Positions 9,904-38,900 of a stretch of 64,000 nucleotides of DNA are shown in pieces. Numbering within the stretch: position 1 is the first letter of the stretch; each line of letters starts with the position of its first letter. Where the stretch lies: contig DASTXL010000001.1 in NCBI GenBank assembly GCA_035758565.1, forward strand, positions 396,981 through 460,980. The letters are read 5' to 3'. The notes beneath the pieces are model-generated. The model saw nothing but the letters and a program-made list of their open reading frames with translations. It did not search any database and was not told the origin of the DNA. The stretch comes from Candidatus Saccharimonadales bacterium. Lineage in GTDB: Bacteria; Patescibacteriota; Saccharimonadia; Saccharimonadales; UBA10212. A program made the translations under genes and the position numbers.

Positions 9904-9977
9904 CTCGCGGCATGGGCTAATTAAGTAGCATTCGCTCGCCCGTGCCGCCTCAACTCCTTATAATCTCATGCAGAGTA

Positions 9978-10006
9978 TTGACTTTTATGTAGTTTTATGC
10001 TAATAT
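9978..10006 (+). promoter_or_regulatory. candidate sigma70 promoter: TTGACT, 17-nt spacer, TAATAT
   Basis: Consensus-like hexamers with 17-nt spacer in an AT-rich spacer inside the high-GC islet, upstream of the third islet gene. Confidence 0.45.
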
Positions 10007-10098
10007 ATCCCTAACCATCAAGCTTATGCTTTGTTGGAGTCCCTCAAGGTATTACTTCCTTGTCAATTGCAGTAGCGAGAGAAAGGAATCAGCTGGCC

Positions 10099-10590: not shown

Positions 10591-10607
10591 GGAAGAACCA
10601 AAGAGGC

Positions 10608-10681
10608 GCCGGTGAGCGTGCTCGCGAGGCAACTCGCGCCGCTCACCGGCAAGCGGCTTTCAGTCGAAGGCCGCTTTTTTA
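10608..10681. terminator. two consecutive hairpins; the second (AGCGGC, loop, GCCGCT, then TTTTTT) is a classic intrinsic terminator
   Basis: GCCGGTGAGCG...CGCTCACCGGC is followed by AAGCGGCTTTTCAGTCGAAGGCCGCTTTTTT. They sit between convergent genes (islet gene 3 and tsf) and probably act bidirectionally. Confidence 0.55.
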
Positions 10682-12237: not shown

Positions 12238-12266
12238 TTGAAAGATATATATAATTATGGTAAAAT
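12238..12266 (+). promoter_or_regulatory. candidate sigma70 promoter: TTGAAA, 17-nt spacer, TAAAAT
   Basis: Hexamers read directly; located upstream of the second high-GC islet gene pair. Confidence 0.4.
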
Positions 12267-12341
12267 ATTGCAGTCACTTAACAGAGGTGGCGCTGGCCTG
12301 GCAGCACCAAACCACGGCAGAACCTTGCGAAAGGAAGACGC

Positions 12342-12692
12342 ATGACTTCCTCGCCCATTCAGGTAAGCATCTACCACCACCTCGCCGCAGAAGATCAGAC
12401 GGCCGTAGCAGACGAGCTGATTCGTCTCTTCAGCTACAAGCCTCCGATCGGTCTCGGTCGGCCCGAAGGCGACGAGTTCAGCATCAACTTCGTCGAGCGG
12501 GAACATCCCCTGAACACCACCATCCGGGTGGTTCTGCCGGCGGAGATCTTCAACCAGCTCGTGCCTGGCAAGAAGCCCGACGAGGTCCTGCGCCATTCGC
12601 TGAACGTCCGCTTCCACCGCGACGACTTCTACGTCATCGTCACAGGGGTCAACCTGGACGAAGAGGAGGAAGAAGCAGAGGAGTGGGAATGA
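12342..12692 (+). CDS. small acidic hypothetical protein (paralog A), high-GC islet 2
   Basis: ATG preceded by GAAAGGAAG. The C-terminus is a poly-Glu tail. Its stop overlaps the next start in an ATGA arrangement. Weak beta-alpha-beta pattern reminiscent of tautomerase-like small proteins, but the Pro is not at position 2. Confidence 0.5.
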   Translation: MTSSPIQVSIYHHLAAEDQTAVADELIRLFSYKPPIGLGRPEGDEFSINFVEREHPLNTTIRVVLPAEIFNQLVPGKKPDEVLRHSLNVRFHRDDFYVIVTGVNLDEEEEEAEEWE

Positions 12693-13006
12693 GCCTCGAA
12701 CCAATCGAAGTCCAGCACTCCGAAGACCTGGACCCCAACGAGCAGGCGGCGATCGAAAGCGCGGTGCGAGAACTGTTCGCCGAACAGTTTGGCGATCAGC
12801 TCGGCATCGAGCCGGATGACGTAGAGGTCAGGTTCAGCCTCGCCAATATTGGGCCGAAGCAGCTCAGGATCTACGCGATTCTGCCCGCCAACCTCGACCT
12901 CGGCATTGGCGAAGTGATGTACGGCGAGAGCCTCAATACCATCTACATGGAGCTAGTCAAACGATTCCCTGGCCGGGTGGTCATCATGAGCGCCGAGAGC
13001 GGCTAG
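12689..13006 (+). CDS. small acidic hypothetical protein (paralog B), high-GC islet 2
   Basis: ATGA overlap with the upstream gene. Alignable to paralog A (I-x-V, EDQ/NEQ-AA, LPA motifs). The track ORF 12257..13006 is a different-frame read-through artefact. Confidence 0.5.
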   Translation: MSLEPIEVQHSEDLDPNEQAAIESAVRELFAEQFGDQLGIEPDDVEVRFSLANIGPKQLRIYAILPANLDLGIGEVMYGESLNTIYMELVKRFPGRVVIMSAESG

Positions 13007-16958: not shown

Positions 16959-17708
16959 CTATACCGTCGCGCCTGTCCAATCGGACAGGACAAGTACTAT
17001 TAAAAGAATTGCGAACATTATACCTAGCAACTGGCGCTCCAAAACTTTATTCAAACGACCATTAGCATCTATGTAATAAAGAGCTGCCAGGCCATAGCCA
17101 ATGGTAGTCATAATAATGATGATTTGGGCTATTGAGCCATAGAACAGTAACCAGTGTCCTAAAATAAATGCTACGCAGGCTCCAAAATAGCCCCAAATAT
17201 GGGCCAGCAGAGCTGAATATGGCTCTTCAAAGCTAGTCAAATAATGCCGAGCGGCCAGGTAGGTTACTGCCCAGGTGGCCAAAATTAGCCATATCAATGA
17301 CGCGTCGCCAAACTTTAAGTAAAGAACGGTCAGGCCTAAAAGCTGCCCTATCATGGCCTGCGCCGAAACACTTAAAACATCGTAGCGAGGCTTAAGATAA
17401 ACCAGCCAACCAGCGTATAGCACCACCCAAAGCAGCTGCCACCATGTGACGCTGGTGCTAGCCATAAACAGAATAAACGAAACGCTGACGATAATGTCCA
17501 CTCCGTTAGCCACGATGTTGGCAAGCCAATAACGCGGCCGGACCGCAAACATTCTCCACTTGGCCAAGACAACCAACAGGATTGCTAGTGGTACAAATTC
17601 AATCTTGACCAGTATGTAGGCCAAAACCGGCAGTAAGCCATTTAGAGCAATATGAAGAACGTGAGAAAATCCGCGCGTCGGCTTAATTTTGGCTGGAAGT
17701 TGCAGCAT
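16959..17708 (-). CDS. polytopic integral membrane protein (about 8 TM), unknown function
   Basis: Highly hydrophobic and W/Y-rich; overlaps the upstream LCP gene by 26 nt. Confidence 0.6.
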   Translation of the reverse strand: MLQLPAKIKPTRGFSHVLHIALNGLLPVLAYILVKIEFVPLAILLVVLAKWRMFAVRPRYWLANIVANGVDIIVSVSFILFMASTSVTWWQLLWVVLYAGWLVYLKPRYDVLSVSAQAMIGQLLGLTVLYLKFGDASLIWLILATWAVTYLAARHYLTSFEEPYSALLAHIWGYFGACVAFILGHWLLFYGSIAQIIIIMTTIGYGLAALYYIDANGRLNKVLERQLLGIMFAILLIVLVLSDWTGATV

Positions 17709-21827: not shown

Positions 21828-24800
21828 CTAATTGCTTACCCAGCGTACGTAGCAGGTCAGATTATTGATGCCTATGGAAGCTCCGGAACTGGATGCTGTG
21901 ATATAGAGGTCGGGCTCCAAGTTGTCGGCATTGGTATAGCTACTTAAATCTTTCCAACCGGAGTCTTCAAAGACTTCTGAAGTTGGGTATGAATCTGTTG
22001 GGATAAATGTGGCAAAAGAGTTAATCCCGCTCATTGTACCGCCATTATTACTGGTATGAAAGGCCACACTCACCGTACCGTGAGCGCTGCCATTATCATA
22101 GGTGCTCATCATAAATCTGATCTGTGGATGCAAGCCGGCATTAGTTGGTCCACGCAGCGGCACTACCGGCAAACCTATGAATGTCCCTGCGGTGTTGCTG
22201 CCCAAACTTCGATTGGCATTACCCAGATAACTTGTGCCTTGCGTTATTATGCCCGTGTACGGCTGCTGATCCGATACCCATTTGCCATAGGTAGCGTCAT
22301 AAGTCAGCGTCAACATATCATAAGGACTGGAGCCTGCACGAATACGTACCTGGCGGCCATCATATAGATTGGTCGTCGGCAGTGTGGTAACTACGTCTAC
22401 GCCGGCCAAATTATTGTAAGCACCATTATCGCAGCCGCGGAACTGATTAGAACTGGAGTTATAGTAGATGCCTCCACTGGTACAACCGCCAGCAGGGTCG
22501 CCCGAAGTATTTTTAACCCCTAGAACCAGTATTACGGGCGTGGAGCTGGCCGAACCCAAATTAATCTGCATATTCGTGGTGTCAACCGTGAACAAATTAG
22601 TACCGCTGGCATTTTGGATCTGAAAAGCAGAAATGGAATCTGCGGCATTCTGGAACAGGGCTGAACCAGTACTACCCGACAGGCTAGCTACGGTAGAAAG
22701 ACTATTGGCTGCAGTTCCAAAAACAAGCCTACCTATCGCATGATTAGTTTGATTAGCCCAGTAAACATCATTGATGCTCGAGGTCATGTCGGCAAGGTTG
22801 CCAGAAGCCGTAATGAAGTTCGAGTTACTGCCTGTGCCGTCTAGGCTGGCACGGCCGATAGTCCCACTACTGTTGGTCCAGTAGAGGAAGGTGGGAGTAA
22901 CAGTTATGCCTTGTGGTGTGCCAACGGCGATAGCCACCAGGCTATTATTTGCACCCGTGCCGTCGAGATTAGCGCGGCCAAGAGAATGACTGTTAGTCCA
23001 GTAAATATGCGAGCTGTCTATGGCAACGTCCGTTATGTGCTCGCCTACAACACCCGAAATAAAGCTCTGGTTTACCCCGGTGCCATCAATATTGGCTCGA
23101 GCAACGGTATCGCCGTTATATTCTCCCCAGTAAATGTAGTTAGTATTAACGACTATGTTTTGCGGCACGCCAGATAACCCTGTTATAAAGCTACCGTTTG
23201 CACCGGTGCCGTCGAGGTTAGCGCGACCAATGGCGGTGCCCGTGGACCAGTAAATGTAGGTATTATCTACGGCCAAACCTACGGCTCCCGAGATGCCGGT
23301 TATAAACGATGTGTTTACCCCGGTGCCATCAATATTGGCTCGACCGATAGAATTAGTAGGAGCATTAATCCAGTAGATAAAGTTATTGTCCACCGCTACT
23401 CCAAAAGGTCCTGTTGGCGAGCTTACGCTCATGAAACTGGGGCTTAGGCCGTTTGTATTAGGCTTAGCGATCTGCAGATTGATATTGCCGCCATTGCCCG
23501 CCCCCGTACCTTGACCGCCTGCTAATATCAAGTTACTTCCGGCTACGTCGGCTCCGGCGCTGGCCGCCACCTGCAACATTCCGCTACCACCCGGGTTAGA
23601 TAGCAGCAATCCCCCTGCGCCAGACCCTACAGCCAGCGTGCCGTCAGTCTTCAAGGTGTTGCTAGCTGAGCGATACAGGTTAGTGTCCGTACCAAAACTT
23701 ATACCGCCAGTGGAGGTTGTGGTATTTGTTCCCACAACCAGCACGCTACCAGCGTCCGAAGTAGCGTTAACGGTTATTAAATTATTGGCCGAAGCATCTT
23801 GTACTTGAAGCGCGATAGGATTATTAATGCCTGTCTGCCATTGGTAAGTGGTCGAGTTGGCATTCCATATCATAGTGGGCAGCCCCGTAAGAAGAGACGT
23901 AGATAGATTAGTTAACGTAGGGTCGGTATTGCCGTAAGTGTTAAGGGTCGAGGCGTCCGCGGCACTCAAGGTTCCCTTTCCGGCAGCGAACCAGAATACA
24001 TCGCTATCGGTACTGCTATTGGCAATCGTAAAGCTTGATGAGTTGATGGTCGGCATGCCCGAGTAAGAAGTGGTACTGAATGCCGATCCGTTTACCGATA
24101 CGCCAATCTGCGAGCCTGTCCAGAAAGCCACCAAGGTGTAAAGATTAGTCTGAGTTATATCTACGTTACTTTTGAGCGCTAGTGCTGAATTGACGCCAAA
24201 ACGCACATCAGACGTAGGTCCGCCGCCGCCCCCATGAATACGGAGTAAGGCCTGGTTGGTACCATCAGTCCAGTTAAAGGTTGCTATGTCGCCCACTCTG
24301 CTGGCCGGCTGATCCATTCTAAAGCGTATAGCTATCCATCCTTGTGCTTGGTTGAGGAGGCTGGATGGGGCGGTGATATTACCGGCGGATCTAGTCTGAG
24401 TAGTACCATTGGTTTCTACGTAAGGTGTCGCGTATGGCCTTGCTTCAGCCTGGGCCCCGTCAATATAGAACGTAGTATTTTGCTGGACATCAGTTTCGAC
24501 ATATAAGCGGAAGGTGCCTGAGCCCAGAGGCGAAGAAGTAGTTAGAGTCAGCCTGGTCCAGCTGGTACTAGACAGCGTAACCGGGGAGCTTGTAATTACT
24601 GCTGTTGGTGTATTATCGGTCAGGCGCAGGCGCACCGTAGGACTGCCGGTGCTCGCTTTAGCCCAAACACTAACGGTATGGATTTGGTTACTTGATTGGA
24701 CAAAGGTAGTATAAGCCCCCTCATTGGCCGTGGAATTGCTGGTGACTATTTGGGCTGAACGCGAACCGAACTTTGCGATACTGGACGAGCTAACAGAAGA

Positions 24801-27800
24801 AGATACAGAGGTCCAGCCGCTGGTGCTGCTCTCGAATCCGCCGTTGGCCACCAGGTTGTTGACTGATTCCCACACCCCATAGCTACTGTCGCTGGTGATG
24901 CCGTCGTACGAGTGACCGGCCACATTAGTGGTGCTTGCTCCTTCGGCGCGCATGGCATCATTTATTTCACTGCCGCTAGCCGTTAGATTAGCGCTCAATA
25001 CCGGACTAGAGAAGTTGTCTTTTATGGCTAGAGTAGCAATCGGGCTGCTGGTGCCGATGCCTATCTTGCTATTTATAGTGTCCGCTACCAGAAGGTTGGA
25101 CGTACCGGCGGCATTTTGTACCTGAAATGCGCTCATTGAATCAGCGGCGTTTTGGAATAGTGCCGATGTATTGGCAGTCAAAGAACTGCCAGAAGAACTC
25201 ACGTTCAATAGGTTTGAGCCGGCAGCGTTTTTAACCTGAAAGGCGTTGGTGTTATCTGTAGCGTTTTGGAATAGTGCCGAGCCGTTGACACCAGAGATAG
25301 TGGCGACAGTAGAGAGAGAATTGGCTCCGCTGCCAAAACTGTAGCGACCAACAGTAAGCAAGCTTGAGTTAGTCCAGTAGAGGAATGAACTATCCACGGC
25401 CACGCCTCCCGTATTAGATCCAGTGATGTAGCTGGTATTTATGCTGGACCCATCAAGGTTGGCACGGCCGATATTTCCCCCACTTACCGACCAATAAAGA
25501 TGACCACTGTCGACAGCGACCTCTGCAGAAGCAGTGTTCGCGCCTGTCATAAAACTCTGATTAACGCCGGTGCCATCTAAATTGGCACGGCCGATATTAC
25601 CTGGGAGAGAAGTAGCGGCAAAAGTCCAATAGACATGTGAGCCGTCAACTGCTATTCCGTATCCGGCTTGGCTGATGCTAGTAACCAGGGCCTGCACGTT
25701 CGTGCCGTCCAAGTTAGCACGACCGATGGCGAATGCGCCTTGAGCGTCGGTGAAGTAGATATAATTACTGTCTACCGCTATGCCTCTTATAGCAGCACCC
25801 TGCCCGGTTATAAAACTATTGTTAACACCTGTGCCATCCACATTAGCGCGGCCGATGGAGCCGCCCCCTATTGTCCAGTAAACATAGTTATTATTAGCTG
25901 CTAAAGCAACTATGCTGCCAGAAGTTATAAAATTCGGGTTAGCATTAGTGCCATCCAGGTTGGCACGGCCGATCTTAGTGCCGCTATTTACCCAGAAGAT
26001 GTAATTATTGTTTACAGCTACTTGTCCCGCGGAACTCAGCCCGGTAATAAAGCTCTGGCTAGGTACGTTAACTGATGGTTTAGCAATTTGCAAATTAATG
26101 TTACCGCCATTGCCAATCCCGGTGCCCGCGCCACCGGCTAATATCAAGCTACTACCGGCTACATCAGCTCCAACAGCTGTCGCCGCCTGCAGCGTACCAG
26201 CGTTGCTGGCTCCGCCAGCAAGAATCAAGTTGCCCGCGCCATTACGGTAAAGTTGCGTATCTGTGCCAAAGGTTACGCCGCCAGCAGAGGTTGTCGTGTT
26301 AGTGCCAATTGTCAGCAACGAACTAGTCGGAACCGCTCCTATGCCTATGCGAGTATTTTGAGTATCAGCGACAAATAGATTACTGTTCCCTGCCTGATTC
26401 TGAATTTGGAAAGCCGTGGTGCTGTCGGTAGCATTTTGGAACAGCACATTGCCGCGAGCTCCAACCGTAGCTACACTTTGACCGCTATCGCCAGCTACCA
26501 GATCAAACAAGTCAGCAGTTTGACCAGAGGCGCCGCGGATAGTGGCAACAACATGATTGTTGGCATCTGACTGAATAGCGAAATTAGCAGTCTGCAAAGA
26601 GGTAGAATTTTGAATATAGTTGCCACTGCCGGCTCCCGGTGTACAGCCACCAGCTGAACAAATTATATTTCCACCCACGCGAATGGCCGTTGTTGAGTTA
26701 ATGTCGCCCCCGACATCTAGCGTATAGGTTGGTGGCGTTGGCATGGCTATGGCCACCCTGTCATTCACAGTATCACCGCCTATGAGATGCGAGGTACCGG
26801 CAGCATTTTGCACCCAGAAAGCGTTGGTCGAATCTGTGCCTGGCTGAATTAATACGTTGCCTGTTGGCCCAACCGAAAAGACTGTGTCGTTAAAGCCGTC
26901 GTTAACCTGGAAAATATTAGCGATTTGTCCAGACGCACCCTTTACTAGCCCAGCGACAGAGTTAACATCGGCGCTTTGAACAGCAAAGTTCGCGCTCTGT
27001 ACCGAGGTTCTGTTTTGGATATAACTGCCCGATCCCGAGGCGGCCGTACAACCAGCACCCGAGCACAATGCAACACCGTTAATCCTTATTGAACCTCCAG
27101 CAGTTACATTGATGTCGCCGTTAACATCCAAGGTGTAATTAGCGCTTGTTTGATTTATAGCCACCCGCCGGTTTGAGGTATCTACTAAGAACAGCGCTGT
27201 GGTGCCGGCGGAGTTCTGAATCTGAAAAGTGTTGGTAGAATCAGCGCCAGGTTTAAATAGGTTATTGTTAGAATTTTTTAAAGTAACGTTCGAGCTCAGG
27301 CGAGCATCAGGTAGCGTGCCGGATGAAATATTGCCAGCATTTAGTGCAAGTAACGCTGAACCATTTAGTGCCGGCAAAATGCCACTTGGCCCTAGTTGAA
27401 CAAGTTGCAGTGCACCATTGAAGCTATTGCCAGCCTGGGTAACATTTGGGCTGAGCTGGGTTGACGAGGAAACTATATTCGGAGCATTGAGTTTACCATT
27501 GATAGTAACCGTACCTGTCTTGGTGTCAACATTTATAAGGCTTGTGCCAGAAGCGTCTTGGACAGTAAAGGCCTTGGTTGAATCGGTGTCATTTTTAAAG
27601 GCCACCGGTCCAGACGCGGTTAGCTTTTTGCCGTTAGCGATCTTAGTGTCGATGCCAAAGGTTACAGACTCAGCGCTCACATCGCCGAGCGTATTAGATG
27701 ATGGCTCTTGATTATTGACCTGTGATTGTGGGGTATTTGTATGGCGATTCATAACGAATAATGTAGTGGCGGCGCAAACTAAGACTATTAGGCCAACCAC

Positions 27801-28118
27801 TAAGAAAGATCGCTTCGGTATTCCTGGCGCCCAACTTATCTTTTTGGACTGTGCAACCGGCGGCTCAGGTGCCACAGCATAAATAGACTCATTAAGAGTC
27901 GGCGCAGCTGGGCTAGGTACCATGCCCTGCGTAGCGAGAGTTGGCGCGGCTTCTAGCGAGCCTATTTCGGGTACACCTGGAGTTATAACGCTATTAGGCG
28001 TTTGAGTAAGCTGAGATGTACTGGCAATAGCCGGTGCTTTAGTCACGGCAGAAGTACTGTTTTGAACAGGGGTAGGCTGGATAGAACTAATAGGAGTCGG
28101 CTGCTGCTCTGGATTCAT
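21828..28118 (-). CDS. giant membrane-anchored surface protein (2096 aa)
   Basis: Pro/Ser/Thr-rich N-terminus with one TM (about aa 100-125). About 13 copies of an ALFQNAADSxxAFQIQNAAGTxLLxADTxNxRIGIG-type repeat. A ConA/LamG-like jelly-roll (about aa 1060-1400). Two YWTD-type six-bladed beta-propellers with YWT...IGRANLDGTGxN.SFITG...VAVD blades (about nt 25346-26051 and 22721-23441). A Cys-containing C-terminal domain (GGCTSGGIYYN...RGCDNGAYN) is shared with the 4696-aa paralog. Strong AGGAG ribosome-binding site. Confidence 0.85.
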   Translation of the reverse strand: MNPEQQPTPISSIQPTPVQNSTSAVTKAPAIASTSQLTQTPNSVITPGVPEIGSLEAAPTLATQGMVPSPAAPTLNESIYAVAPEPPVAQSKKISWAPGIPKRSFLVVGLIVLVCAATTLFVMNRHTNTPQSQVNNQEPSSNTLGDVSAESVTFGIDTKIANGKKLTASGPVAFKNDTDSTKAFTVQDASGTSLINVDTKTGTVTINGKLNAPNIVSSSTQLSPNVTQAGNSFNGALQLVQLGPSGILPALNGSALLALNAGNISSGTLPDARLSSNVTLKNSNNNLFKPGADSTNTFQIQNSAGTTALFLVDTSNRRVAINQTSANYTLDVNGDINVTAGGSIRINGVALCSGAGCTAASGSGSYIQNRTSVQSANFAVQSADVNSVAGLVKGASGQIANIFQVNDGFNDTVFSVGPTGNVLIQPGTDSTNAFWVQNAAGTSHLIGGDTVNDRVAIAMPTPPTYTLDVGGDINSTTAIRVGGNIICSAGGCTPGAGSGNYIQNSTSLQTANFAIQSDANNHVVATIRGASGQTADLFDLVAGDSGQSVATVGARGNVLFQNATDSTTAFQIQNQAGNSNLFVADTQNTRIGIGAVPTSSLLTIGTNTTTSAGGVTFGTDTQLYRNGAGNLILAGGASNAGTLQAATAVGADVAGSSLILAGGAGTGIGNGGNINLQIAKPSVNVPSQSFITGLSSAGQVAVNNNYIFWVNSGTKIGRANLDGTNANPNFITSGSIVALAANNNYVYWTIGGGSIGRANVDGTGVNNSFITGQGAAIRGIAVDSNYIYFTDAQGAFAIGRANLDGTNVQALVTSISQAGYGIAVDGSHVYWTFAATSLPGNIGRANLDGTGVNQSFMTGANTASAEVAVDSGHLYWSVSGGNIGRANLDGSSINTSYITGSNTGGVAVDSSFLYWTNSSLLTVGRYSFGSGANSLSTVATISGVNGSALFQNATDNTNAFQVKNAAGSNLLNVSSSGSSLTANTSALFQNAADSMSAFQVQNAAGTSNLLVADTINSKIGIGTSSPIATLAIKDNFSSPVLSANLTASGSEINDAMRAEGASTTNVAGHSYDGITSDSSYGVWESVNNLVANGGFESSTSGWTSVSSSVSSSSIAKFGSRSAQIVTSNSTANEGAYTTFVQSSNQIHTVSVWAKASTGSPTVRLRLTDNTPTAVITSSPVTLSSTSWTRLTLTTSSPLGSGTFRLYVETDVQQNTTFYIDGAQAEARPYATPYVETNGTTQTRSAGNITAPSSLLNQAQGWIAIRFRMDQPASRVGDIATFNWTDGTNQALLRIHGGGGGPTSDVRFGVNSALALKSNVDITQTNLYTLVAFWTGSQIGVSVNGSAFSTTSYSGMPTINSSSFTIANSSTDSDVFWFAAGKGTLSAADASTLNTYGNTDPTLTNLSTSLLTGLPTMIWNANSTTYQWQTGINNPIALQVQDASANNLITVNATSDAGSVLVVGTNTTTSTGGISFGTDTNLYRSASNTLKTDGTLAVGSGAGGLLLSNPGGSGMLQVAASAGADVAGSNLILAGGQGTGAGNGGNINLQIAKPNTNGLSPSFMSVSSPTGPFGVAVDNNFIYWINAPTNSIGRANIDGTGVNTSFITGISGAVGLAVDNTYIYWSTGTAIGRANLDGTGANGSFITGLSGVPQNIVVNTNYIYWGEYNGDTVARANIDGTGVNQSFISGVVGEHITDVAIDSSHIYWTNSHSLGRANLDGTGANNSLVAIAVGTPQGITVTPTFLYWTNSSGTIGRASLDGTGSNSNFITASGNLADMTSSINDVYWANQTNHAIGRLVFGTAANSLSTVASLSGSTGSALFQNAADSISAFQIQNASGTNLFTVDTTNMQINLGSASSTPVILVLGVKNTSGDPAGGCTSGGIYYNSSSNQFRGCDNGAYNNLAGVDVVTTLPTTNLYDGRQVRIRAGSSPYDMLTLTYDATYGKWVSDQQPYTGIITQGTSYLGNANRSLGSNTAGTFIGLPVVPLRGPTNAGLHPQIRFMMSTYDNGSAHGTVSVAFHTSNNGGTMSGINSFATFIPTDSYPTSEVFEDSGWKDLSSYTNADNLEPDLYITASSSGASIGINNLTCYVRWVSN

Positions 28119-28414: not shown

Positions 28415-31400
28415 TTAGTACTTGATAATGTAGTTAAGGGTCAAGTACGCCCCGGTATCTGTTGGCACATTAGTCTGAGGACCAACCGTTACAGTAGTGT
28501 TAGTTGTTGTGGTAGTGACTGTATTAACACCGAAGCTTGAGGTCGGCCAGTTGTTACCGCCGCTGCCGCCCTGGAAACCGCTGCCTGCTCCGTTATAAAC
28601 TACGGCATTTCCACTCACCGGACTGGTTACCGTAGACGTAGAGTTGGAGGTCGATGTAGAAACAGCTGAGGCGCTGCCTTTGTGGTAAGGGGTTCGGCTA
28701 CCAACCACTACACCCTCGTTGTTGCCTAGAGCGGTTACGTCAGTACGCCCAACCTCGGCTGGGTTCAGTCCAACGGCGGTTCGGCCGCGCAGATCAGGTA
28801 GGTTAAAGGTGGTCGAACCATCACCAACACCATAGGTCGTGCCGATAACGGCAAATAGCGCGGCATAAGTCGTTCGCGACACGGCTGACCCATCGGCAAC
28901 CAGATATCCCATTGGAGCAGTCAAACCAGCATAAGCTTGTATTGTCCCCGCTGGCGTCCCAGCCATCGAAAAGTCATTCCAACTACCATTAGCACAGCCA
29001 CGGAAGGTATTAGATGTTGAATTATAGTAAGTTGCGCCATTTTTACAGGTTGGATCGCTGGTTTTGATACCCATCACCAGCAAACCGTTACCGTCGAGTG
29101 TAAAGTTACCGCTGCTATCCAGAGAGGCCTGCAGAACCCCGTTGGTATAAAAGTCCATCAGATTAGAGCCGGCATCCTGGATTTTCAGGCTGTCAGACGG
29201 TCCAAAGCTCAAGAAATTACCGCCAGCAATCCTAATAGAGCCGTTAACATCCAACTTTTGGCCCGGAGTGGATGTTCCTATGCCTACCCGGCCATTAGCC
29301 GTATCAACGTCTAAGACCGTGCTGGAATTGGAATCCTGAACCTGAAAAGCAGTAGTGGAGTTAATACTGCTTTGGAGCAAGAAGTTGGAATTGGTTTGCA
29401 GAGTGTTGGCGGAGCCACGGTACAAACTAGCGTCGTCCAAGGTCAAGGCGCTTTGAACCACGGTGCCGGTGCTGGAACTATAGGTGGAAGTTGAGCCGTT
29501 CCAGACCATTGTCGGTACAGCTGCACCGGAGTTCATGGTGGTTAGGCTGCTTAGGGCTGGATCAGTATTACCATAACTGTTAAGAGTGGCGGCATCGGGG
29601 TTGGATAAAGTGCCCGTACCGCCGACAAACCACAGGAAGTCGCCATCTGCCCAGCGGGCGTTAGCCACGGAGCCAATATCGAATAATGAATTCATGGCGC
29701 CGAAAGCAGCAGCGGGAGTTTGGTTGGTATTAACGAAGTTCCCTCCATTTACAGAAACATCTACGGCAGAGCCGGTCCAGTAAAATACCAGCGTAAATAC
29801 TGTTCCTTTTGAGAACGGGCCGACCGTCACCGCAGCGTTTGAACCCGTATCGTGAGTACGGGTTATGGCAAGCCCGTTAGTGTTGTTAAAGTAAGCCGTT
29901 ATACCGTGACCGCTACCATCTTCCCAATCGAACAAATGGGCCTCGCCGTTAAGGAAGTTACCAATATCAGTGCTGGCCACATCCGTGCGGAACCTCATAG
30001 CTACCCAGCCCGTGGTACTGCTACCAATAGCTGCAGACGGAGCTCGGATGCGGGCTGCGCTGCGGCTTGAAGTGGTAAATGGCGTCGCATAAGCTTTTTG
30101 CTCCATTTGGATTCCATCTAACCAAGCAGTGACAGACGAACCGGTGTTTTGGATATTTCTAAAGAAAACTTTTCCGCTAGCTGCATTTGAAGGACTGGTA
30201 CAGCCGCCACTAAACCTCTGCCAATCTGTTGATGAGGTCCATTGATTACCGCCACAGGTATTTATAACTGATCCGGTGCCATTAGTTCCTGTGTACCAAT
30301 CTATAGAAAATCCGACGGTAATAGCAGCGCTTGTCTTAGTCCATTCCGAAATCGTGTAAATGGTACTGGGACTTACGTTAACATTCGTCTGGTATAAATT
30401 GTGCCAGTTATTATCACTAGCTACAGAAGCGCTTAAGCTCTGGGTCCCAAACTTAGCCGTGCTGGTATCGTTCCCCGTGCTTTCAAAGCTCGGGTCGCTA
30501 AACATATTTGTTGTAGCCTCCCAAACACCGGTGCTGCTATCCGGTGGAGTCACGCCATCGCCTTGGGTGTTGGTGCGGCGGGTAGCATCGGTAATTTCGT
30601 TGCCCGACATGGTTAGGCCGGTAGAAGATAGTAGGTTCCAGCTTAGCTGAGCACTGGCCGTACCGGAAGCGCTGCCAACGGTACTGGTGGCCTGAAGCTG
30701 GGTGGTAGAGACTTTGAAGTTAGTGGTATCAGCCGTCAGCAGGTTGAGCCCATTAGCGTTCTGGATTTGGAGAGCGGTGGTGGAATTGGTAGCGGTCTGG
30801 AACAAATTAGCATTACCGGTAGCCCACAAACTGCTTAGAGTCTTAAGCGAGCCACCAACCCCGTAAAGTTCGTCGCCCGCGCCAAAGTATACTCCGGTGG
30901 CGCTACTGGTAGCAGCCGCAAAGCTTACGCGACTATTGCTCGTATTTACATTAAAGATATTAGCGCCGCTGGCATTTTGTATCTGGAAAGCATTAGCAGA
31001 GTCGGCTGTGTTCTTAAACATAGCCGTGCCGTTTCCGGTCAGATTGCCAGCTACTACTAAGTTGCCGTCGGTCTTTAAAGTACTATTGGCTGAGCGGTAC
31101 AGGTTGGCGTCGCCGCCTATCAAAATGGCACTGGAACTCACGGTGGCATCGGGCAATAGTATCTGTCCGGTAATGGTATCGGCGGTCAGCAATGGTTGGG
31201 CCGAAGCGTTTTGGATCTGGAAAAAGGTGTGCGATCCGGCAGAAGAATCTTTAAACAGGGCCTGGCCCTGGTTGCCAATGCTGGTGACTACGGCGCCGCT
31301 GCCGTCTTTCAGTTCCAAAAGGTCCGCTGTTTGCCCGCTCTTACCCTTTAATATGCCCACCACGTTGCTGGCCGAGACAGATTCTATGTTAAAGTTAGCG

Positions 31401-32989
31401 TCGCTCTGCAAACTTATTCCGTTTTGGATATAGTTGCCAGAACCGCTGGCCGCCGTGCATCCCCCCGCAGTACAAAGCGTAGAGCCGTTTATCTCATAGT
31501 TACCGGTAATATTTACATTGCCCTGGGGATCTAGCGCATAAACCGTGCTGCCTGTGGAATCTTTACCCTCAAACAAATCGGCAGTCTGGCCACTGGCGCC
31601 CTGGATTATGCCACCAACATCGGTAGCGTCGGCAGAACGGATGTTAAAATTGGCGTCCGCTTGCTGAGTCGTAGTGTTATTGACGTAATACGACGAACCG
31701 GAAGCCGGATTACAGAGCCCGCCAGAACACACATCGGTTCCGTCAATTCGGAACGTGTGGCCGGCGCTAACGTTCACGTCTCCGTTCACGTCCAGCGTGT
31801 AATTAGGCGTGGCCACACCTATGCCGATGCGAGTATTTACGGTGTCGGCTATTAGCAAGTTATCATTACCGGCAGCATCTTGGATCTGAAAAGCGTTAGT
31901 GGCGTTTGTGGCTGATTTAAATATGTTATTGCCAGTAAAAATGTTGTTGGCGTCCAGGAGCGCCACATTGGTGCTTAACCTGTTATCGTTTACCGTACCG
32001 CTTGTTATGTTGCCGGCGTTCAACGCGCTCAATCCTGATCCATCACCGACAAAAGTATTGCCAGCCGCCGTGAATGAATTAATTCCACTGAATGTTTGGT
32101 CGGTGTTTAGACGAGCTATGTTGCCCGAAAGCAGGCTGTCACTTAGCGTTCCCGCGCTCAAATTAGACACATTGGCGTAATAGCTGGCACCGTGTCCCCC
32201 TAGGGTCGCCGCATCACCGGTAAAGGCGAGGCCTTGGGGCTTACAGCCGCTAGCCGTACACACTAACACGGAATTTATAATTAACCCCGAGTTGCTTAAT
32301 TCAGTAGCGCCGCCACCCGAGCTAACAGAGCCAGTTGCCGAGATATCGCCGCCAACTTGCAAGGCAGCGTTGCCAGTTGGAGTGGCGCCAATTCCCACCC
32401 TGCCGTTTTGAGTATCGGCCACCAGCAAATTGGCACCAGCAGCGTTTTGAATTTTGAAGGCAGTCAGGCTATCGGCAGCGTTTTGGATAATAACCGGGCC
32501 GGTGGCGGTGAATGTTTTGCCGTTGGCAATTTTAGTATCTATGCCGAAGGTTACAGATTCCTCACTGATGTCAGCCAGCTGATTCGGGCCGGAGCCGGTT
32601 GAGGCTTGGTTGTTAACCGGCACGTTTGTTCTTGGCCGGTTCATAATATAGAAGGTTCCCGCAGCCAGTGCCAGGATTACTAAAGCTACACCTAGCCATG
32701 ATTTTTTAGACGGGCGCAGCATTTCACGAACCGGAGGACCGGCGAACGGCGGTTGGCTAGGAGGCGAAAAGTCTGGCTGATTAATTAGTGGTTCTGCTGG
32801 AGCGGCGGCGACTCCAGAGATGGGCGGCGAAGCCGTTTCCAGCGAAGAAGCTGTTACCGTTTCAGAGCTCGCAGTCGGTGGAACTAGCGACGGATCTAAA
32901 GGAGTGGTTGGCGGACTTGAAAACATAGTAGCAATACCGCTTGGTGCGGTTGGTTGCGGCTGGGTTAGGTTTTTGTTTTGGTCGTCCAT
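28415..32989 (-). CDS. giant membrane-anchored surface protein (1524 aa) with a C-terminal phage tail-collar (tail-fibre-like) domain
   Basis: Low-complexity N-terminus plus one TM. Shares the FGIDTKIANGK module and the AFQIQNAAG repeats with its neighbours. Has a jelly-roll domain (WVAMRFRTD...). The C-terminus reads YLVADGSAVSRTTYAALFAVIGTTYGVGDGSTTFNLPDLRGR, the hallmark of the phage tail-collar domain (about nt 28640-28850), and is preceded by the YYNSTSNTFRGCANGSWN motif. Confidence 0.85.
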   Translation of the reverse strand: MDDQNKNLTQPQPTAPSGIATMFSSPPTTPLDPSLVPPTASSETVTASSLETASPPISGVAAAPAEPLINQPDFSPPSQPPFAGPPVREMLRPSKKSWLGVALVILALAAGTFYIMNRPRTNVPVNNQASTGSGPNQLADISEESVTFGIDTKIANGKTFTATGPVIIQNAADSLTAFKIQNAAGANLLVADTQNGRVGIGATPTGNAALQVGGDISATGSVSSGGGATELSNSGLIINSVLVCTASGCKPQGLAFTGDAATLGGHGASYYANVSNLSAGTLSDSLLSGNIARLNTDQTFSGINSFTAAGNTFVGDGSGLSALNAGNITSGTVNDNRLSTNVALLDANNIFTGNNIFKSATNATNAFQIQDAAGNDNLLIADTVNTRIGIGVATPNYTLDVNGDVNVSAGHTFRIDGTDVCSGGLCNPASGSSYYVNNTTTQQADANFNIRSADATDVGGIIQGASGQTADLFEGKDSTGSTVYALDPQGNVNITGNYEINGSTLCTAGGCTAASGSGNYIQNGISLQSDANFNIESVSASNVVGILKGKSGQTADLLELKDGSGAVVTSIGNQGQALFKDSSAGSHTFFQIQNASAQPLLTADTITGQILLPDATVSSSAILIGGDANLYRSANSTLKTDGNLVVAGNLTGNGTAMFKNTADSANAFQIQNASGANIFNVNTSNSRVSFAAATSSATGVYFGAGDELYGVGGSLKTLSSLWATGNANLFQTATNSTTALQIQNANGLNLLTADTTNFKVSTTQLQATSTVGSASGTASAQLSWNLLSSTGLTMSGNEITDATRRTNTQGDGVTPPDSSTGVWEATTNMFSDPSFESTGNDTSTAKFGTQSLSASVASDNNWHNLYQTNVNVSPSTIYTISEWTKTSAAITVGFSIDWYTGTNGTGSVINTCGGNQWTSSTDWQRFSGGCTSPSNAASGKVFFRNIQNTGSSVTAWLDGIQMEQKAYATPFTTSSRSAARIRAPSAAIGSSTTGWVAMRFRTDVASTDIGNFLNGEAHLFDWEDGSGHGITAYFNNTNGLAITRTHDTGSNAAVTVGPFSKGTVFTLVFYWTGSAVDVSVNGGNFVNTNQTPAAAFGAMNSLFDIGSVANARWADGDFLWFVGGTGTLSNPDAATLNSYGNTDPALSSLTTMNSGAAVPTMVWNGSTSTYSSSTGTVVQSALTLDDASLYRGSANTLQTNSNFLLQSSINSTTAFQVQDSNSSTVLDVDTANGRVGIGTSTPGQKLDVNGSIRIAGGNFLSFGPSDSLKIQDAGSNLMDFYTNGVLQASLDSSGNFTLDGNGLLVMGIKTSDPTCKNGATYYNSTSNTFRGCANGSWNDFSMAGTPAGTIQAYAGLTAPMGYLVADGSAVSRTTYAALFAVIGTTYGVGDGSTTFNLPDLRGRTAVGLNPAEVGRTDVTALGNNEGVVVGSRTPYHKGSASAVSTSTSNSTSTVTSPVSGNAVVYNGAGSGFQGGSGGNNWPTSSFGVNTVTTTTTNTTVTVGPQTNVPTDTGAYLTLNYIIKY

Positions 32990-32997
32990 TCTTATTC

Positions 32998-35900
32998 TTA
33001 CTGGCTACGCCACCTAACCATCGCACCTAGATTTTCATAGGTGGCATTAACGCTGGCTGTATTGTACTCAACAGATAGTTCACATTCGGCATTTGCGGGA
33101 GCGCCGCTATAAGTGGCGTCTGTCCAATTGGCGATCTGGTAGACGTTGTTGGCAAACACGCTAACCGACGGACCGGTAGCCCACAACGACCCGTAAGGCG
33201 AGGCACTGCTTCCACCGTGGGTATACAAAGAAGCCCGTATATAAGTAGTGGTCCCAGTTCCACTAGAGTTCATATAGCCGGATACGTATATCTGTGGGCG
33301 AAGGCCGGCATTGTATAGAGACATACAATTTGACAGCGGCATGGCACCATATGGCGACCACGCGCTACTGTTTAGGGTCGTAGCTGAAGGCAATTCGTTA
33401 ATTGTTGCGTCGGCTTCAGAGTACCAATGGCCCTGAGCGGCATCATACGTCAGTTTAAGGTAGTCTGCCGGAGCGCTAACTTTTAGGTATACAGTTTCAC
33501 CATCGTGCAGGTTAGTTGTTGGAATGGTTGTTACTATATCTATGCCGTTCAGGCTGTTCCAGGCACCGTTCGCGCAGCCCCTTATTTGATAGCTGGTCGT
33601 ATTGTAGTAGAGCCCACCGTTGGTACAGCCTGGATCACTAGTGGAGGCTCCCAATACTACCGTGCCGCTAACCGCTAAGTTGCCGGCAACGCTAACGTTA
33701 CCGGTCGGACCTACGTTGAACAATATTGAACCGCTGCTATTTTTAACGTCCAGGATGTCAGCTGATTGACTGGTGGCGCCTTGCAGAACCATGGTCGGAT
33801 TGCTGGCGCTACTGGATTGAATATTAATATTCCCTGTTTGAGTCGTCGTGCCGTTGTTTATTCCACTGCCGCCCTGCAAGCTTGGGTTAGCAAGGGTAAC
33901 GCGAATGTAGCCAGGGACATAGTTCCCAGAGCCACCATTACCGCCCTGAACCGTGGCATTAGATACTGCTTCATATGCCCGAATTGAAAACGTATGCGCC
34001 CCCGCCGACGGTGTAATCTCGCGACTTTCCATTATTCCCGTGAAGGTTAAGGCGCCCACATTGTTAGATATGATGGTTTGGCCCATCTTGCCAATAGACG
34101 ATCCGTCTTCGTAAAGCACAAATGTTAATGAAGGATAAGCAGCATTATTAAAGTCTATTTCGGGAGTATAGAACTCGATCATATAGGGAGTAGCTCCGTC
34201 AGCCGTGAAAGATGACGCGGTGACTACAGTGTTGGCAGTTGACTCGGAAGTGGCACTGATTGTTACTGGCGAAGTGAATTGGTTGTAAGCCAATTGATAG
34301 TTACTGCCGCTTGTTTGACTGCTGGTGCCGGACCCGCCGCCGGAGCCACCGTTAGAATCTATCTTCCAGCTTGGGTTACTACTCAGGTCAGGACCCCCGT
34401 CGTATATAGGCGCCGACTGTATCACGCTTACACCAGAACCGCCAAGCACGTATGCAGCATTGCCAGCGATGAATGCCGGTGATAGATAAGAACTGCTCGG
34501 CAGACTATCAGTCGCTGCCCACAACAAAGGATTGTTGATTGGAGCTTCCTGAACGGTCGTTCCAGCCATCAGATAAATATGGTCACCCACTATTAATATA
34601 GTGGCGTTCTGCATATTGGTGTTTAATGTGTAGCCGGTAGATACCCATGAGGTCGGTGAACTAATTGCCGCGCGGTAGATATTGCGCATCGGGCCGCCGC
34701 CGTTATTGCCACCAAACATGTAAACATAGTTGCCAATGACGGCTAGTTGGCTGAAGAATATATTGAATCCGAGCGTACCGGCTGAACTCCAGCTAGTAGG
34801 TGAGCTGATGCTAGCAGTATAGATTACATTGCCCGCCGTATTCACCGCGCTGGCCCCACCGAACAGATATATATTGCTGCCGATGATCGCCAATTGAGAG
34901 TTTACAAGGTTGCCAGGCAAAGTTCCGGCGGCTGTTTGCCAACTATTAATCGGGTCAGAGACCGGCGCGTAATAAATCACGTTGGTTGCCGCCGATCCAT
35001 TATAGCCGCCGAATAGATACACGTAGCTACCTACTACTGCTACTTGGGACTCTTCCAGCGCACCCGGCAATTTAGCGCCTTGGTCAGTCCATGATGTCGG
35101 GTTAGACACAGGAGCCGTATATACATGCTGCGAAGTAGAACCGCCTACATTACCACCGAATAGGTAGATGGTGTTGCCAATAGTGGCTACCTGGCCGCCA
35201 TACATATTAGCCGGCAATGTCCCGGCATTGGTCCAGTCGCTTTCCATTAGGCCGTAGCCGGCGCCAGACCCCGAACCACCGGCGCCGTTACCCGGATTTA
35301 ATCGGACCCAGACGGTACCGTTAGAGCCGGCAGTCTTAGCGCTCATGGCCTGGCCGATTATTCCACCACTTGGGTAGGCAGAATCAGTGGCTTTACCAGC
35401 AGTACCACTAGTTACCAGATAGTCGCCTACGTTCACCGCAGCTGTATCGACGTTGACCTGGTAAATACCGCTGATAGCAATTGGCTGGCTCTGCCCGGCG
35501 CTCATCGTTTTAGTGGCTACGCCAAATACTTTGGTCGAGTTAGCAAGAGTCGTAGTGGTCACCTGCCCAGCATTGTTGGTATCTATTACCACCACGTCGT
35601 TAGCATTTACGCTGGTAGTTACTGTTTCGTTGACGGTCATTATCTGGCTGGCGTTGCCAGAATTATTGAAGCCAATAGCGCCAGTTATGCCTAAATTGCC
35701 ATTAGCATCTACGCTCAGCAAATTTGAACCGCTGCTATTACGGACATCAAGAATATCCGCGCTTTGACTAGATGCACCTTGAATTATCGCAGTCGGGTTG
35801 TTGCCGCTTGCAGACTGGATGTTGAAGTTAGCGGTTTGAGTGGTGGTACCATTGTTGATCCCGCTGCCACCTTGGATTTGAGGATTGGCGAGAACTACTC

Positions 35901-38900
35901 GAATATAGCCCGGCACAAATGTAGTGCCGCCAGTGCCACCGGGACCAGCCTCTACCGTACCGTTGGCGTTAATTCGCCATGCCCGAATAGAAAATGTATG
36001 AGCGCCAGCAGTCGGCGTAAGTCTGCGCGTTACGTGTACAGGATCATAGCCTTGCATATTTGCCCCGCTATATACTTGTCCAAATATGTCGCCTATGGAA
36101 CTGCCGTCTTCATAAAGCGAAACAATTGTATGCCCATCGGCGCCAGCATCTACTCTAGGCGCGAAGAATTCAACTACTACAGGTGTATTGCCGTCTGAAC
36201 TAATAGATGTAGCCGTGACTACTGTATTAGCGGTTGAAGCAGATGTAGCCGACACGGTCACAGGAGCCGTAAATTCGCTATAGGCAAGCTCTGTATTGTT
36301 ATTTGCTGTTTGGCTGCTGGTGCCGGACCCGCCAGTACCGACGTTAGAATCGGTTATCCAGCTTGGGTTAGAGCTAACATCCGGCGAGCCATTGATTATC
36401 GGTGCCGAATAAATCTTATTGCTGTACGCCGTCCCAGTGTAACCGCCCCAAACGTATAGGGCATTTCCAACAATTGATACTCTGCTATCTACAAGCACGC
36501 CATTCATATAAGCGGTTGTTGCCCAGCCCCATACCGGATCAGTAACCGGAGCTCTAAAGATTACTGACACATATCCTCCGTTATAGCCACCCAGAAGATA
36601 TACATAGTTTCCAACGATGGCAAGCGAGGAATTATCCAAACCTGACCCGGTACCCGCATTAGGAATAGTGCCACCGCTATTAACCCACGATGTAGGACTA
36701 CTTATAGGAGCACGGTAGATGGTGTTCAGAGTGGAGCTACCATTAGCTCCGGCAAACAGGTAGACGTAGTTACCGATGACGGCTAAGTTGGAGTCGCCTA
36801 TACCACTAGACGCAGGCGCTATGCTACCAGCCGTACTCCAGCTTAGTGGGTTAGACACAGATGCCGTGTATATTGTGTTAATGTAGCCAGTACCGGTGTG
36901 ATAACCACCAAACAAATATATATTGCTGCCAATTATCGCAAGAGAGCTGCTCGTCAAACTAGTGGACAAGCTGCCAGCTAGCGTCCAGCTACCTACTGGA
37001 TCGGAAACATTCGCTGAATATATATTGGCCGTAGACGCGCCAGCTATCGCGCCGCCGAAGAGATAAATCTTGCTGCCGATAATTGCTAATTGCGAAGAGT
37101 AAAGATTAGCACCGGAAGGCAGGTTGCCAACAGCGGTCCAGCTGGTTGGATTACTTACGGGGGCCCTCATTATAGTTGTAACGCCAGCGCCAGCGCCAGT
37201 CGCGCCGCCAAACATATAGACGTAGTTACCAATGGTTGCTGGAGCACCCTCTACTAGCCCTGGTGCCACTGGCAGTGTTGCCCCGGTATCAATAAAGTCA
37301 CTTTCCATTAGCCCGTAACCGCTGCCAGATCCGGAACCGCCGGCGCCGTTGCCGGGGTTGATTCGGGCCCAAACCGTGCCGTTAGAACCAGCAGCTTTAG
37401 CGCTCAAAGCTTGGCCGATTACGCCGCCACTAGGCGAGCTAGAAGAAGTTGCCATGCCGGTAGTTGAAGAAGTTACGAGATAATCGCCGATATTAACCGC
37501 GGCCGTGTCTACATTAACTTGATAAATACCGCTTACAATAATCGGTTGGCTAACTCCTGCTGAATTTGTAGTCGTAGCTACACCGAATACTTTAGTACTA
37601 TTGGCCGTCGTACTATCTGTTACCTGGCCGGCAGTTGTTGTATCTACAACTACAACATCCCCGGCCGTAACACTGCTAGTTACGACCATATTAAGGCTTA
37701 TACCCTGGTTCTGATTGCCAATGTTGCTAAAGCCAATTGTGCCGCCAACGTTCAAGTTGCCAGCCACGAATGTGTTGCCGTTTGGATCGACGGAAAGCAG
37801 GTTGATATTGCTAGAGTTCTGAACGTCCAGTATGTCGGCGCTCTGACCAGATGTACCGTGAATAGTTGCGGTAACGCTGCTGGGGCTTGCGCTTTGTATA
37901 TTAAAGTTTGCACCGATCTGCAAGGTAGTGCCGTTTTGTATACCCCCACCACCCTGCAAAGATGTTCCGTATTCGGTCACAATAATCACACCGCCGGCAC
38001 CGTACCCACCGGACAGCGACGAGCTAGAAATACCACCCGCGCCACCACCGCCACTACCATATGCGACGCCGGCACCGCCGGCAGTAGTGTAGTTCCCGCC
38101 GGCGCCACCGCCGCCAAAGTAACTAGCGCCACCATTGCCACCTGATTGACCAGTGTAGTTATATGCACCGTCATTTCCGGTGCCGCCAGTAACGTTAACG
38201 TCGCCCCCCGTACCTGTGCCACCCGTGCCTCCAGCAGGGGCAGTGCCGCCGCCGGCATCTGTGCCACCGGTGGCACTCAATGCGCCAAAGGCTGTTGTGC
38301 CACCGCTAGTATGAGCGCCACCGCCCCAAGGAGCACCGGCTGCTCCCACTGCATAAGAGTAGCTGGAGCTTGGGCTTGATATAAACTTACGGACGTAACC
38401 ACCAGCACCACCACCACCGCCAGAACCATATTGATTTCCAAGACCACCACCACCGCCACCACCAACAAGTTCAACCTGCAAAGATGTTACGCCCGCCGGC
38501 AGATTAAACGTTCCAGAGCCCGATGTATAAGTTTGAACACCCACAATACCAGATCCACCACTGCCACTTCCACCGGAGTTAGAACCTCCTATGCCATAGA
38601 TTACAAGCCGGCTGCCAGCCTTGAAATTAGATCCGTTCATAGAAATAACCTGGATCCTATTGATTGCCGAGGTACTAGTCCATGTATCCGACCACGTGGA
38701 GCCATCAAGGCTGGCCGCAGTGTAGGCAACGTTAGAGCTATTAATAGCAGTGAATGATTTATGGAAAGAAGTTCCCGCGTAATTTGTGATGGTCGCCTCG
38801 GAACTTCCGGCGGCAAACGTGTTGTTTGACGCGCTGCTGCCAGGTAGCCAGCCGATAGAGGCTGAGCTCATCCCGGTATTAGCGGCACCGTTTACCGCTG

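Follow-up and report, generated by a model that had tools for sequence, protein, structure and literature searches.

We analysed a 64,000-nucleotide stretch of DNA from Candidatus Saccharimonadales (the window), with a focus on one gene on its minus strand that encodes a protein of 2,096 amino acids (aa). An exact-sequence look-up identifies the protein as HEU5004917.1, which is encoded on a 483,507-bp contig of a metagenome-assembled genome of Candidatus Saccharimonadales and which NCBI already names 'DUF5050 domain-containing protein'. The gene is one of three giant genes that lie head to tail at the locus and encode proteins of 2,096, 1,524 and 4,696 aa (Table 1). Its single intact open reading frame (ORF) contains two β-propellers that resemble the YWTD propellers of the LDL receptor. 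The propellers are separated by ~617 residues, which comprise stalk and a cassette of carbohydrate-binding module (CBM) and laminin-G (LamG) type. An earlier note, made from the sequence, had placed the propellers at 22721..26051. This span takes in both of them, but it clips the last ~16 aa of propeller 2 and includes the ~617 aa that are not propeller.

Table 1 Features of the 2,096-aa gene and of the neighbouring giants, in window coordinates.
Feature	Residues (aa)	Position	Strand	Basis
Whole gene	1-2096	21828..28118	-	ORF list and translation; exact-sequence look-up
Pro/Gln/Thr-rich N-terminal tail, predicted cytoplasmic	1-103	27810..28118	-	Precedes the only hydrophobic helix; K/R before the helix
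Single transmembrane anchor (FLVVGLIVLVCAATTLFVM)	~104-123	27750..27809	-	Only 19-aa Kyte-Doolittle window above 1.8
Tail-fibre-like stalk with repeated ..FQNATDST.AFQ[IV]QN.. motifs	124-687	26058..27749	-	Motif scan
Propeller 1, six YWTD-type blades	688-941	25296..26057	-	Motifs, Pfam, AlphaFold, Foldseek
Linker stalk with two FQNA.D...AFQVQN repeats	942-1029	25032..25295	-	Motif scan
Tandem β-sandwich cassette, CBM4/9-like and LamG-like	1030-1420	23859..25031	-	Pfam, AlphaFold, Foldseek
Second stalk segment, ending in LILAGG.GTG.GNGGNINLQIAKP	1421-1558	23445..23858	-	Colinear internal duplication
Propeller 2, six YWTD-type blades, paralogous to propeller 1	1559-1815	22674..23444	-	Motifs, Ldl_recept_b, internal duplication
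Last stalk repeat and C-terminal domain	1816-2096	21831..22673	-	Homology to the 4,696-aa neighbour
1,524-aa paralogue, NCBI 'tail fiber protein', with a phage tail Collar domain at aa 1348-1404	1-1524	28415..32989	-	
4,696-aa giant with several Kelch propellers, six Phage_cement_2 repeats, weak LamG and an N-terminal hydrophobic helix	1-4696	32998..47088	-	
689-aa protein directly upstream of the giants, with an N-terminal hydrophobic helix and three Laminin_G_3 domains (234 bits)	1-689	47351..49420	-	

Each of the twelve blades is marked by a motif of a hydrophobic residue, Y/F and W/F. The motifs are found at residues 707, 746, 787, 829, 874 and 913 in propeller 1 and at residues 1581, 1622, 1662, 1705, 1745 and 1785 in propeller 2. 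Successive motifs are 39-45 aa apart in both arrays, in agreement with the two six-bladed arrays of ~40-aa blades that the earlier note had described in the 2,096-aa protein. The note had further read the blades as reproducing the YWTD / I-x-R-A-x-L-D-G-S core of LDL-receptor class B repeats. The aromatic pair occurs in all twelve blades (Y-W in ten, F-W in one and Y-F in one). A GRAxLDG-type motif occurs in 10 of the 12, compared with 0.0028 per protein in composition-preserving shuffles. The aspartate of YWTD, in contrast, is mostly replaced: T or S follows the aromatic pair in eight of the twelve blades, and the next position is D in only one and N in six. Blade 6 is degenerate in both arrays (VGRYSFGSG and IGRLVFGTA) and merges into a conserved ANSLSTVA..SG linker.

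The blades are on average ~46% identical in pairwise comparison. The duplicated module is larger than the propeller itself, as residues 560-976 are colinear with residues 1427-1848 at 46% identity (E = 3e-79). No DNA-level tandem repeat was found over the blades or the modules, indicating that the blades are old and that neither the blades nor the modules have been amplified recently.

The Pfam model Ldl_recept_b (PF00058) scores 34.9 bits for the whole protein, above its curated cut-off of 21, and each propeller also exceeds the cut-off alone (38.7 bits for propeller 1 and 34.6 bits for propeller 2, the latter scanned as residues 1555-1830). The match is significant because the whole array scores, and not any one repeat. 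When the ten non-degenerate blades are scanned singly, four reach only 14.5-19.2 bits and six are unreported. The bacterial model DUF5050 (PF16472) fits propeller 1 slightly better than Ldl_recept_b does. It scores 60.4 bits for the whole protein (cut-off 27) and 50.5 bits for propeller 1, with a match that spans only positions 98-250 of the 283 in the profile; propeller 2 (residues 1555-1830) has no DUF5050 match at E ≤ 0.01. The virginiamycin B (Vgb) lyase model, Vgb_lyase (PF24684), gives 22.1 bits in one scan of the window protein and 24.9 bits for propeller 2, with a cut-off of 50. The NHL, PQQ and SMP-30/SGL propeller models, which the earlier note had named as possible better fits, give no match to the 2,096-aa protein in Pfam even at E ≤ 10.

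Comparison with solved structures leads to the same class of propeller. A phmmer search of the PDB sequences with propeller 1 returns 36 matches, all of them to LRP4, LRP2, LRP6, LDLR, VLDLR, ApoER2 or nidogen. A profile of the bacterial family to which the propellers belong (see below) ranks single-propeller YWTD chains first and matches LRP4 at 1e-29, LRP6-E1 at 8e-24, LDLR at 5e-18 and nidogen at 8e-16. Its top 36 matches in the PDB are LRP, LDLR, VLDLR, ApoER2 or nidogen, while the NHL-like propellers (the designed Pizza / PknD) appear from 2e-13 down and Vgb lyase at 3e-7. The AlphaFold model of propeller 1, built from an 82-sequence alignment, has a predicted local distance difference test (pLDDT) score of 84.4 and a predicted template modelling (pTM) score of 0.83. 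It contains 24 strands arranged as six groups of four. In a Foldseek search of the PDB with this model, the best 50 matches are all YWTD propellers (LRP6, LRP4, LDLR, LRP2 and ApoER2), with E-values down to 2e-13, template modelling scores of ~0.68, root mean square deviations of ~3 Å and 18-26% identity. Modules of the epidermal growth factor (EGF) or LDL-receptor class A (LDL-A) type have no Pfam match in the 2,096-aa protein, and the propellers run instead into the ANSLSTVA..SG linker and the stalk repeats. Profile scans and structure prediction alike bear out the fold that had been assigned from the letters: the 2,096-aa protein bears two six-bladed propellers of the LDL-receptor YWTD type.

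The premise that such repeats are overwhelmingly eukaryotic, which the earlier note had stated, fails. Bacterial relatives number in the thousands and are 40-60% identical to the window propellers, compared with 18-26% for animal YWTD domains. A word-indexed search with propeller 1 returned at least 5,678 proteins at E ≤ 1e-5. The top 120 of these are 290-490 aa long and 34-52% identical to the query, and 117 of the 120 carry a precomputed PF00058 assignment. An exhaustive phmmer search of 1.84 billion cluster representatives (clusters at the level of 50% identity) found 15,952 clusters at E ≤ 1e-3, 7,341 at E ≤ 1e-10 and 1,673 at E ≤ 1e-30. The source names among the top matches include 'virginiamycin B lyase', 'DUF5050 domain-containing protein', 'T9SS type A sorting domain-containing protein' and 'choice-of-anchor D domain-containing protein'. 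In species-representative genomes of GTDB, relatives are encoded at no fewer than 578 loci (of 600 candidate loci listed), in at least eight phyla or classes. The best 79 loci belong mostly to Solirubrobacterales and other Thermoleophilia. The rest of these 79 are spread over other Actinomycetota, Myxococcota, Chloroflexota, Acidobacteriota, Verrucomicrobiota, Bacteroidota, Syntrophales and Methylomirabilota, and a single genome often carries several copies. Recurring 'clusters' of neighbours beside the free-standing relatives turned out to be alternative-frame ORFs of the high-GC propeller genes themselves, and were discarded.

When the 82-sequence alignment was rescanned, Ldl_recept_b matched all 82 members, Vgb_lyase 72 (E ≤ 1e-3), DUF5050 44, SGL 6 and NHL 2. 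Six blades are the norm of the family, seen in 75 of 116 arrays. The family blade consensus is xYWxNxxxTIGRANLDGTGVNQSFITGAxxxPxGVAVDxxH, and the blade pattern that the earlier note had read from the window protein reproduces it exactly. Cysteine makes up a median of 0.7% among the best 238 matches, and one alone has a Cys-rich stretch that resembles EGF or LDL-A. The sole mention of DUF5050 in the literature searched is the propeller TsgL, listed in a variant of the type VII secretion system. The window propellers are members of a large, database-recognized and apparently unstudied bacterial DUF5050 / Ldl_recept_b family. A YWTD-type propeller in a bacterium is real but fairly ordinary.

The remainder of the 2,096-aa protein has the appearance of an anchored fibre. 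Ser, Gly, Thr, Ala and Asn jointly make up 55% of the residues, and cysteine 0.4%. The Lys-Arg pair N-terminal of the single hydrophobic helix suggests, by the positive-inside rule, a single-pass anchor whose N terminus is inside the cell and which leaves ~1,970 residues outside. The stalk regions have no sequence match in Pfam, PHROG or the PDB, and no NCBIfam family matches the protein. The motif that ends the second stalk segment, LILAGG.GTG.GNGGNINLQIAKP, also stands just before propeller 1. The C-terminal domain proper (residues 1851-2096; 21831..22568, minus strand), which forms the distal fibre end, is nearly an orphan: neither Pfam nor the PDB gives a match, and 5.8 billion clusters give two weak ones. 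The C-terminal ~280 aa are 34% identical to residues 4423-4695 of the 4,696-aa neighbour (E = 3e-31).

The cassette between the propellers (residues 1030-1420) has only 13 detectable homologues. In the family formed by these and the window segment, CBM_4_9 is matched in 8 of the 14 members and Laminin_G_3 in 6; the window cassette itself scores 26.2 bits for Laminin_G_3 (E = 1e-5), just below the cut-off. Its AlphaFold model (pLDDT 77.6) consists of two β-sandwiches. The best Foldseek matches in the PDB are CBM22, CBM16 and CBM4, and laminin-G-type folds occur further down. Two of the 14 family members (P0249 and P0252, ~530 aa), one of which is named PilA by JGI, have a type IV pilin N-terminal methylation motif. 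Since the cassette occurs in proteins that start with this motif, the same CBM4/9 + LamG cassette is probably displayed on pili in related organisms.

The neighbouring giants share parts with the 2,096-aa protein. The 1,524-aa protein, which matches PHROG tail families, has the same Pro-rich tail, transmembrane helix and ~600-aa stalk: residues 54-642 of the 2,096-aa protein align with residues 49-655 of the 1,524-aa protein at 35% identity (E = 8e-83). The final ~270 aa of the 4,696-aa protein and the C terminus of the 2,096-aa protein are homologous. In the 4,696-aa protein, the Kelch propellers are of the KLHDC2/KLHL20 type (220 bits, 7 stretches). Outside the window, a 7,609-aa protein of Saccharimonadales (MGA3150749.1) contains a cassette-stalk-propeller-stalk arrangement that is colinear with residues 967-1867 of the window protein at 47% identity, and the CBM/LamG cassette recurs in it many times. 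Because the stalk, the anchor and the C-terminal domain are common to giants with differing YWTD, Kelch or Collar heads, the giants are, as judged from their sequences, mosaic proteins of exchangeable modules on a common fibre.

The propeller also occurs in further giant fibre proteins (P0132, P0210 / P0259; 2,494 to 7,609 aa; at least one of them from Saccharimonadales), which have an N terminus rich in Lys/Arg and Cys in place of the Pro-rich tail. Its sequence, ..CRICKAPF..CSPACRKRL.., has a zinc-ribbon-like look.

The giants are located in an ordinary chromosomal setting. The flanking genes encode ribosome recycling factor, EF-Ts, S2, RF1, PrmC, an HtrA-like protease and LytR, as well as signal peptidase, ParA/ParB, IleRS and class II ribonucleotide reductase. 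The GC content of the 2,096-aa gene region is ~0.50, which matches the remainder of the window. Scans of the window for tRNA genes and Rfam families gave no match. Away from the giants, the GC content peaks locally at 0.58, compared with ~0.48, at 8001..10000. The peak coincides with a 416-aa ORF at 8591..9841 on the plus strand, around which several ORFs overlap on both strands. A CDP-alcohol phosphatidyltransferase domain is confined to residues 209-357 of this ORF and is preceded by an N-terminal extension of ~200 aa without a match. Three ORFs of 189-249 aa amid the housekeeping genes, at 10063..10632 (minus strand), 12257..13006 (plus strand) and 16959..17708 (minus strand), have no Pfam match at E ≤ 0.001.

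The origin of the propellers was approached with a neighbour-joining tree of 82 propellers, two from the window, three from other giant fibre proteins and 77 from labelled genomes, with the relatives chosen by similarity to propeller 1. The tree has no support. The two window propellers are paired in only 25 of 100 bootstraps, and the five propellers embedded in fibres are in no case grouped as a clade. Each fibre-embedded propeller is nearest to sequences of Thermoleophilia, Actinomycetes or Myxococcota (50-60% identity), and not to the other fibre propellers. We take this pattern to reflect closeness to the family consensus and not to be evidence of transfer. Actinomycetota is the phylum of the known hosts of Saccharibacteria, and Thermoleophilia, a class of this phylum, supply most of the nearest relatives listed. 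Transfer of the propellers from Actinomycetota to Saccharimonadales is nevertheless only a speculation, because the tree is unsupported and its relatives were selected by similarity to propeller 1. As the GC content of the gene matches that of the window, any such transfer would not be recent. In a wider scenario, the IGRANLDG-type bacterial family would be the prokaryotic stock of the metazoan YWTD propellers, and Saccharimonadales would have recruited it, possibly from Actinomycetota, as the host-recognition head of a membrane-anchored fibre. We hold this scenario to be improbable; if it is true, the choice of the host cell to which the epibiont attaches depends on the two propellers.

Cultured members of the Saccharimonadales live attached to host bacteria. 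We propose, with moderate confidence, that the gene encodes a giant modular surface-fibre adhesin of a Saccharimonadales epibiont, with the propellers as its ligand-binding knobs. In such a protein, the short cytoplasmic tail and the one transmembrane helix would anchor the ~1,970 extracellular residues. The tail-fibre-like, β-rich stalk would bear, in order, propeller 1, the CBM4/9-like + LamG-like lectin cassette, propeller 2 and the C-terminal domain. Each propeller would be a ligand-binding head spliced into the stalk as a side knob, an insertion that is feasible because the N and C termini of a closed propeller lie next to each other.

The face of the propeller that might bind a ligand is indicated by the variability of the blades. 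Across 494 blades from 82 propellers, the YW, IGRANLDG, FI, GVAVD and H positions are near-invariant, and entropy is high at blade positions 6-8 and 29-33. On the strands of the AlphaFold model, positions 6-8 form the loop between strands 2 and 3, and positions 29-33 the loop that connects strand 4 with strand 1 of the following blade. Standard β-propeller topology puts both of these loops on the 'top' face, and it is through this face that animal YWTD propellers bind their ligands. The variability on one blade face suggests diversifying specificity. By analogy with the animal propellers, the variable top-face loops may bind a protein, peptide or glycan on the surface of a partner cell. The CBM/LamG cassette may bind a glycan, and the whole protein would act as an adhesin.

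The adhesin is the best-supported reading in view of the variable face, the anchor in the membrane, the cassette of lectin type and the exchangeable heads, and because a cultured Saccharibacterium cannot grow as an epibiont without envelope proteins that carry glycan-binding domains (PMC10633639). Several observations weigh against it. The top-face loops of the window blades are rich in Gly, Ser, Thr and Asn and contain few aromatics, so that the sequence reveals no obvious binding site. In the AlphaFold model, confidence is low where blade 6 closes and where the propeller joins the stalk. The free-standing relatives have no conserved gene neighbour that would hint at a function, and the literature searched on bacterial YWTD, DUF5050 and PF00058 contained neither a study of the family nor a characterized member.

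Other readings of the protein have to be weighed. It could be a structural component of the envelope, such as an S-layer-like coat or a cell-cell spacer, with the propellers as rigid blocks that have no specific ligand. A sequence in which five kinds of residue account for more than half of the chain, a long repetitive architecture and several paralogous giants side by side would all suit this role. However, modules of the CBM and LamG types are typically binding modules, the blade variability is concentrated on one face, and the paralogues differ in their heads (YWTD, Kelch, Collar) on shared stalks, so that we give the structural role a small but appreciable chance. It is also conceivable that the propellers are streptogramin (virginiamycin B) lyases or sugar lactonases, and the protein a surface-displayed hydrolase or lyase. 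Many relatives are named by JGI 'virginiamycin B lyase', 'streptogramin lyase' or 'sugar lactone lactonase YvrE', and both Vgb_lyase and SGL find members of the family (72 and 6 of the 82, respectively), with propeller 2 itself at 24.9 bits for Vgb_lyase. These names, however, are automatic annotations, and the Vgb_lyase scores in the window (22-25 bits) are far under the cut-off of 50. Vgb lyase is a seven-bladed enzyme, whereas the propellers here have six blades. The family profile matches YWTD propellers at 1e-29 and Vgb structures only at 3e-7, and the window protein has no SGL, NHL or PQQ match. We regard an enzymatic function as unlikely.

A phage origin is brought to mind by the neighbouring genes. 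The cluster would then be a prophage, a tailocin or a set of captured tail-fibre genes, and the propellers would be the receptor-binding domains of tail fibres. The 1,524-aa neighbour, with its tail Collar domain, its PHROG tail matches and its NCBI name, is what one would expect in such a cluster, as are the Phage_cement_2 repeats of the 4,696-aa neighbour; the stalk of the 2,096-aa protein, moreover, is homologous to that of the Collar protein. The 2,096-aa protein itself, on the other hand, has no PHROG match, a tblastn search of 50,697 phage records with the propeller gave no match, and a viral structure library returned generic propellers only, at 8-18% identity. Housekeeping genes make up the flanks, none of the ORFs scanned encodes a capsid, portal or terminase protein, and each giant has its own N-terminal membrane anchor. 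In our judgement a phage derivation is quite unlikely. The resemblance of the motifs and the significant matches to LRP4, LRP2 and LRP6 might also be taken as signs of a recent horizontal import of an animal LDL-receptor class B domain. Such an import can be excluded for practical purposes, given the identity to animal and bacterial propellers (18-26% and 40-60%, respectively), the lack of an EGF or LDL-A module and the thousands of bacterial family members. The low cysteine content and the GC content of the region, which is like that of the rest of the window, also speak against it.

By itself the locus leaves current understanding unchanged. It does correct the common impression that YWTD-type propellers are in essence eukaryotic: a family with many thousands of bacterial members, none of them apparently studied, has the same blade signature and matches the same Pfam model. 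The moderately interesting part is the architecture, with two propellers and a lectin cassette in a membrane-anchored fibre of an epibiont lineage. For Patescibacteria, it offers a clear case of giant mosaic proteins predicted to be displayed at the cell surface, in which anchors, stalks and C-terminal domains are shared and YWTD, Kelch, Collar, CBM and LamG heads are interchangeable. Read as surface-fibre adhesins, the mosaic giants are plausible determinants of host attachment in this uncultured soil bacterium of the Saccharimonadales.

Among known systems, the animal YWTD propellers (LDLR, LRP2/4/5/6, ApoER2, VLDLR and nidogen) are the closest solved structures by both sequence and fold. 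Like the window propellers, they have six blades of ~40 aa, YW in strand 2, an I-x-R-A-x-L-D-G turn and (P)xG-[LIV]-A-[LIV]-D in strand 1 of the next blade, and they score above the PF00058 cut-off. The likely mode of action, with ligands bound by one face, is borrowed from them. Major differences can nevertheless be observed, beginning with the low identity and the replacement of T-D in most blades. Animal YWTD propellers are always followed by an EGF module, whereas the window protein has no EGF or LDL-A repeats behind its propellers and almost no cysteine. The window domain is embedded in a bacterial fibre and not in an endocytic receptor, and its degenerate blade 6 is fused to the stalk linker.

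The likeness to Vgb lyase is limited to a related propeller repeat that the profile recognizes weakly; the scores in the window are less than half of the Pfam cut-off, and the match is much weaker than that to YWTD propellers. Phage tail fibres and receptor-binding proteins share with the giants a fibrous, repeat-rich stalk and interchangeable distal binding modules, including the Collar domain of the paralogue. They differ in that the 2,096-aa protein would be held in the cell membrane by its own transmembrane helix, in a housekeeping context and with a propeller for which no phage homologue was found.

The bacterial DUF5050 or 'virginiamycin B lyase-like' secreted propellers share with the window propellers the blade consensus, at 40-60% identity, and the six blades; propeller 1 also scores above the DUF5050 cut-off. 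They are mostly 300-490 aa long and come from Thermoleophilia and other soil bacteria. In most of them, a signal peptide precedes a single propeller, after which Ig-like (ASH / HYDIN-type), TIG, Calx-beta or T9SS (type IX secretion system) sorting domains often occur, whereas the window protein combines two propellers with a CBM/LamG cassette in a membrane-anchored fibre of 2,096 aa. MGA3150749.1, named 'carbohydrate binding domain-containing protein', has one propeller, many more CBM/LamG cassettes and a Cys-rich N terminus. It nevertheless shares with the window protein the cassette-stalk-propeller-stalk order over ~900 aa, the FQ[VI]QN stalk repeats and the CBM_4_9, Ldl_recept_b and DUF5050 domains.

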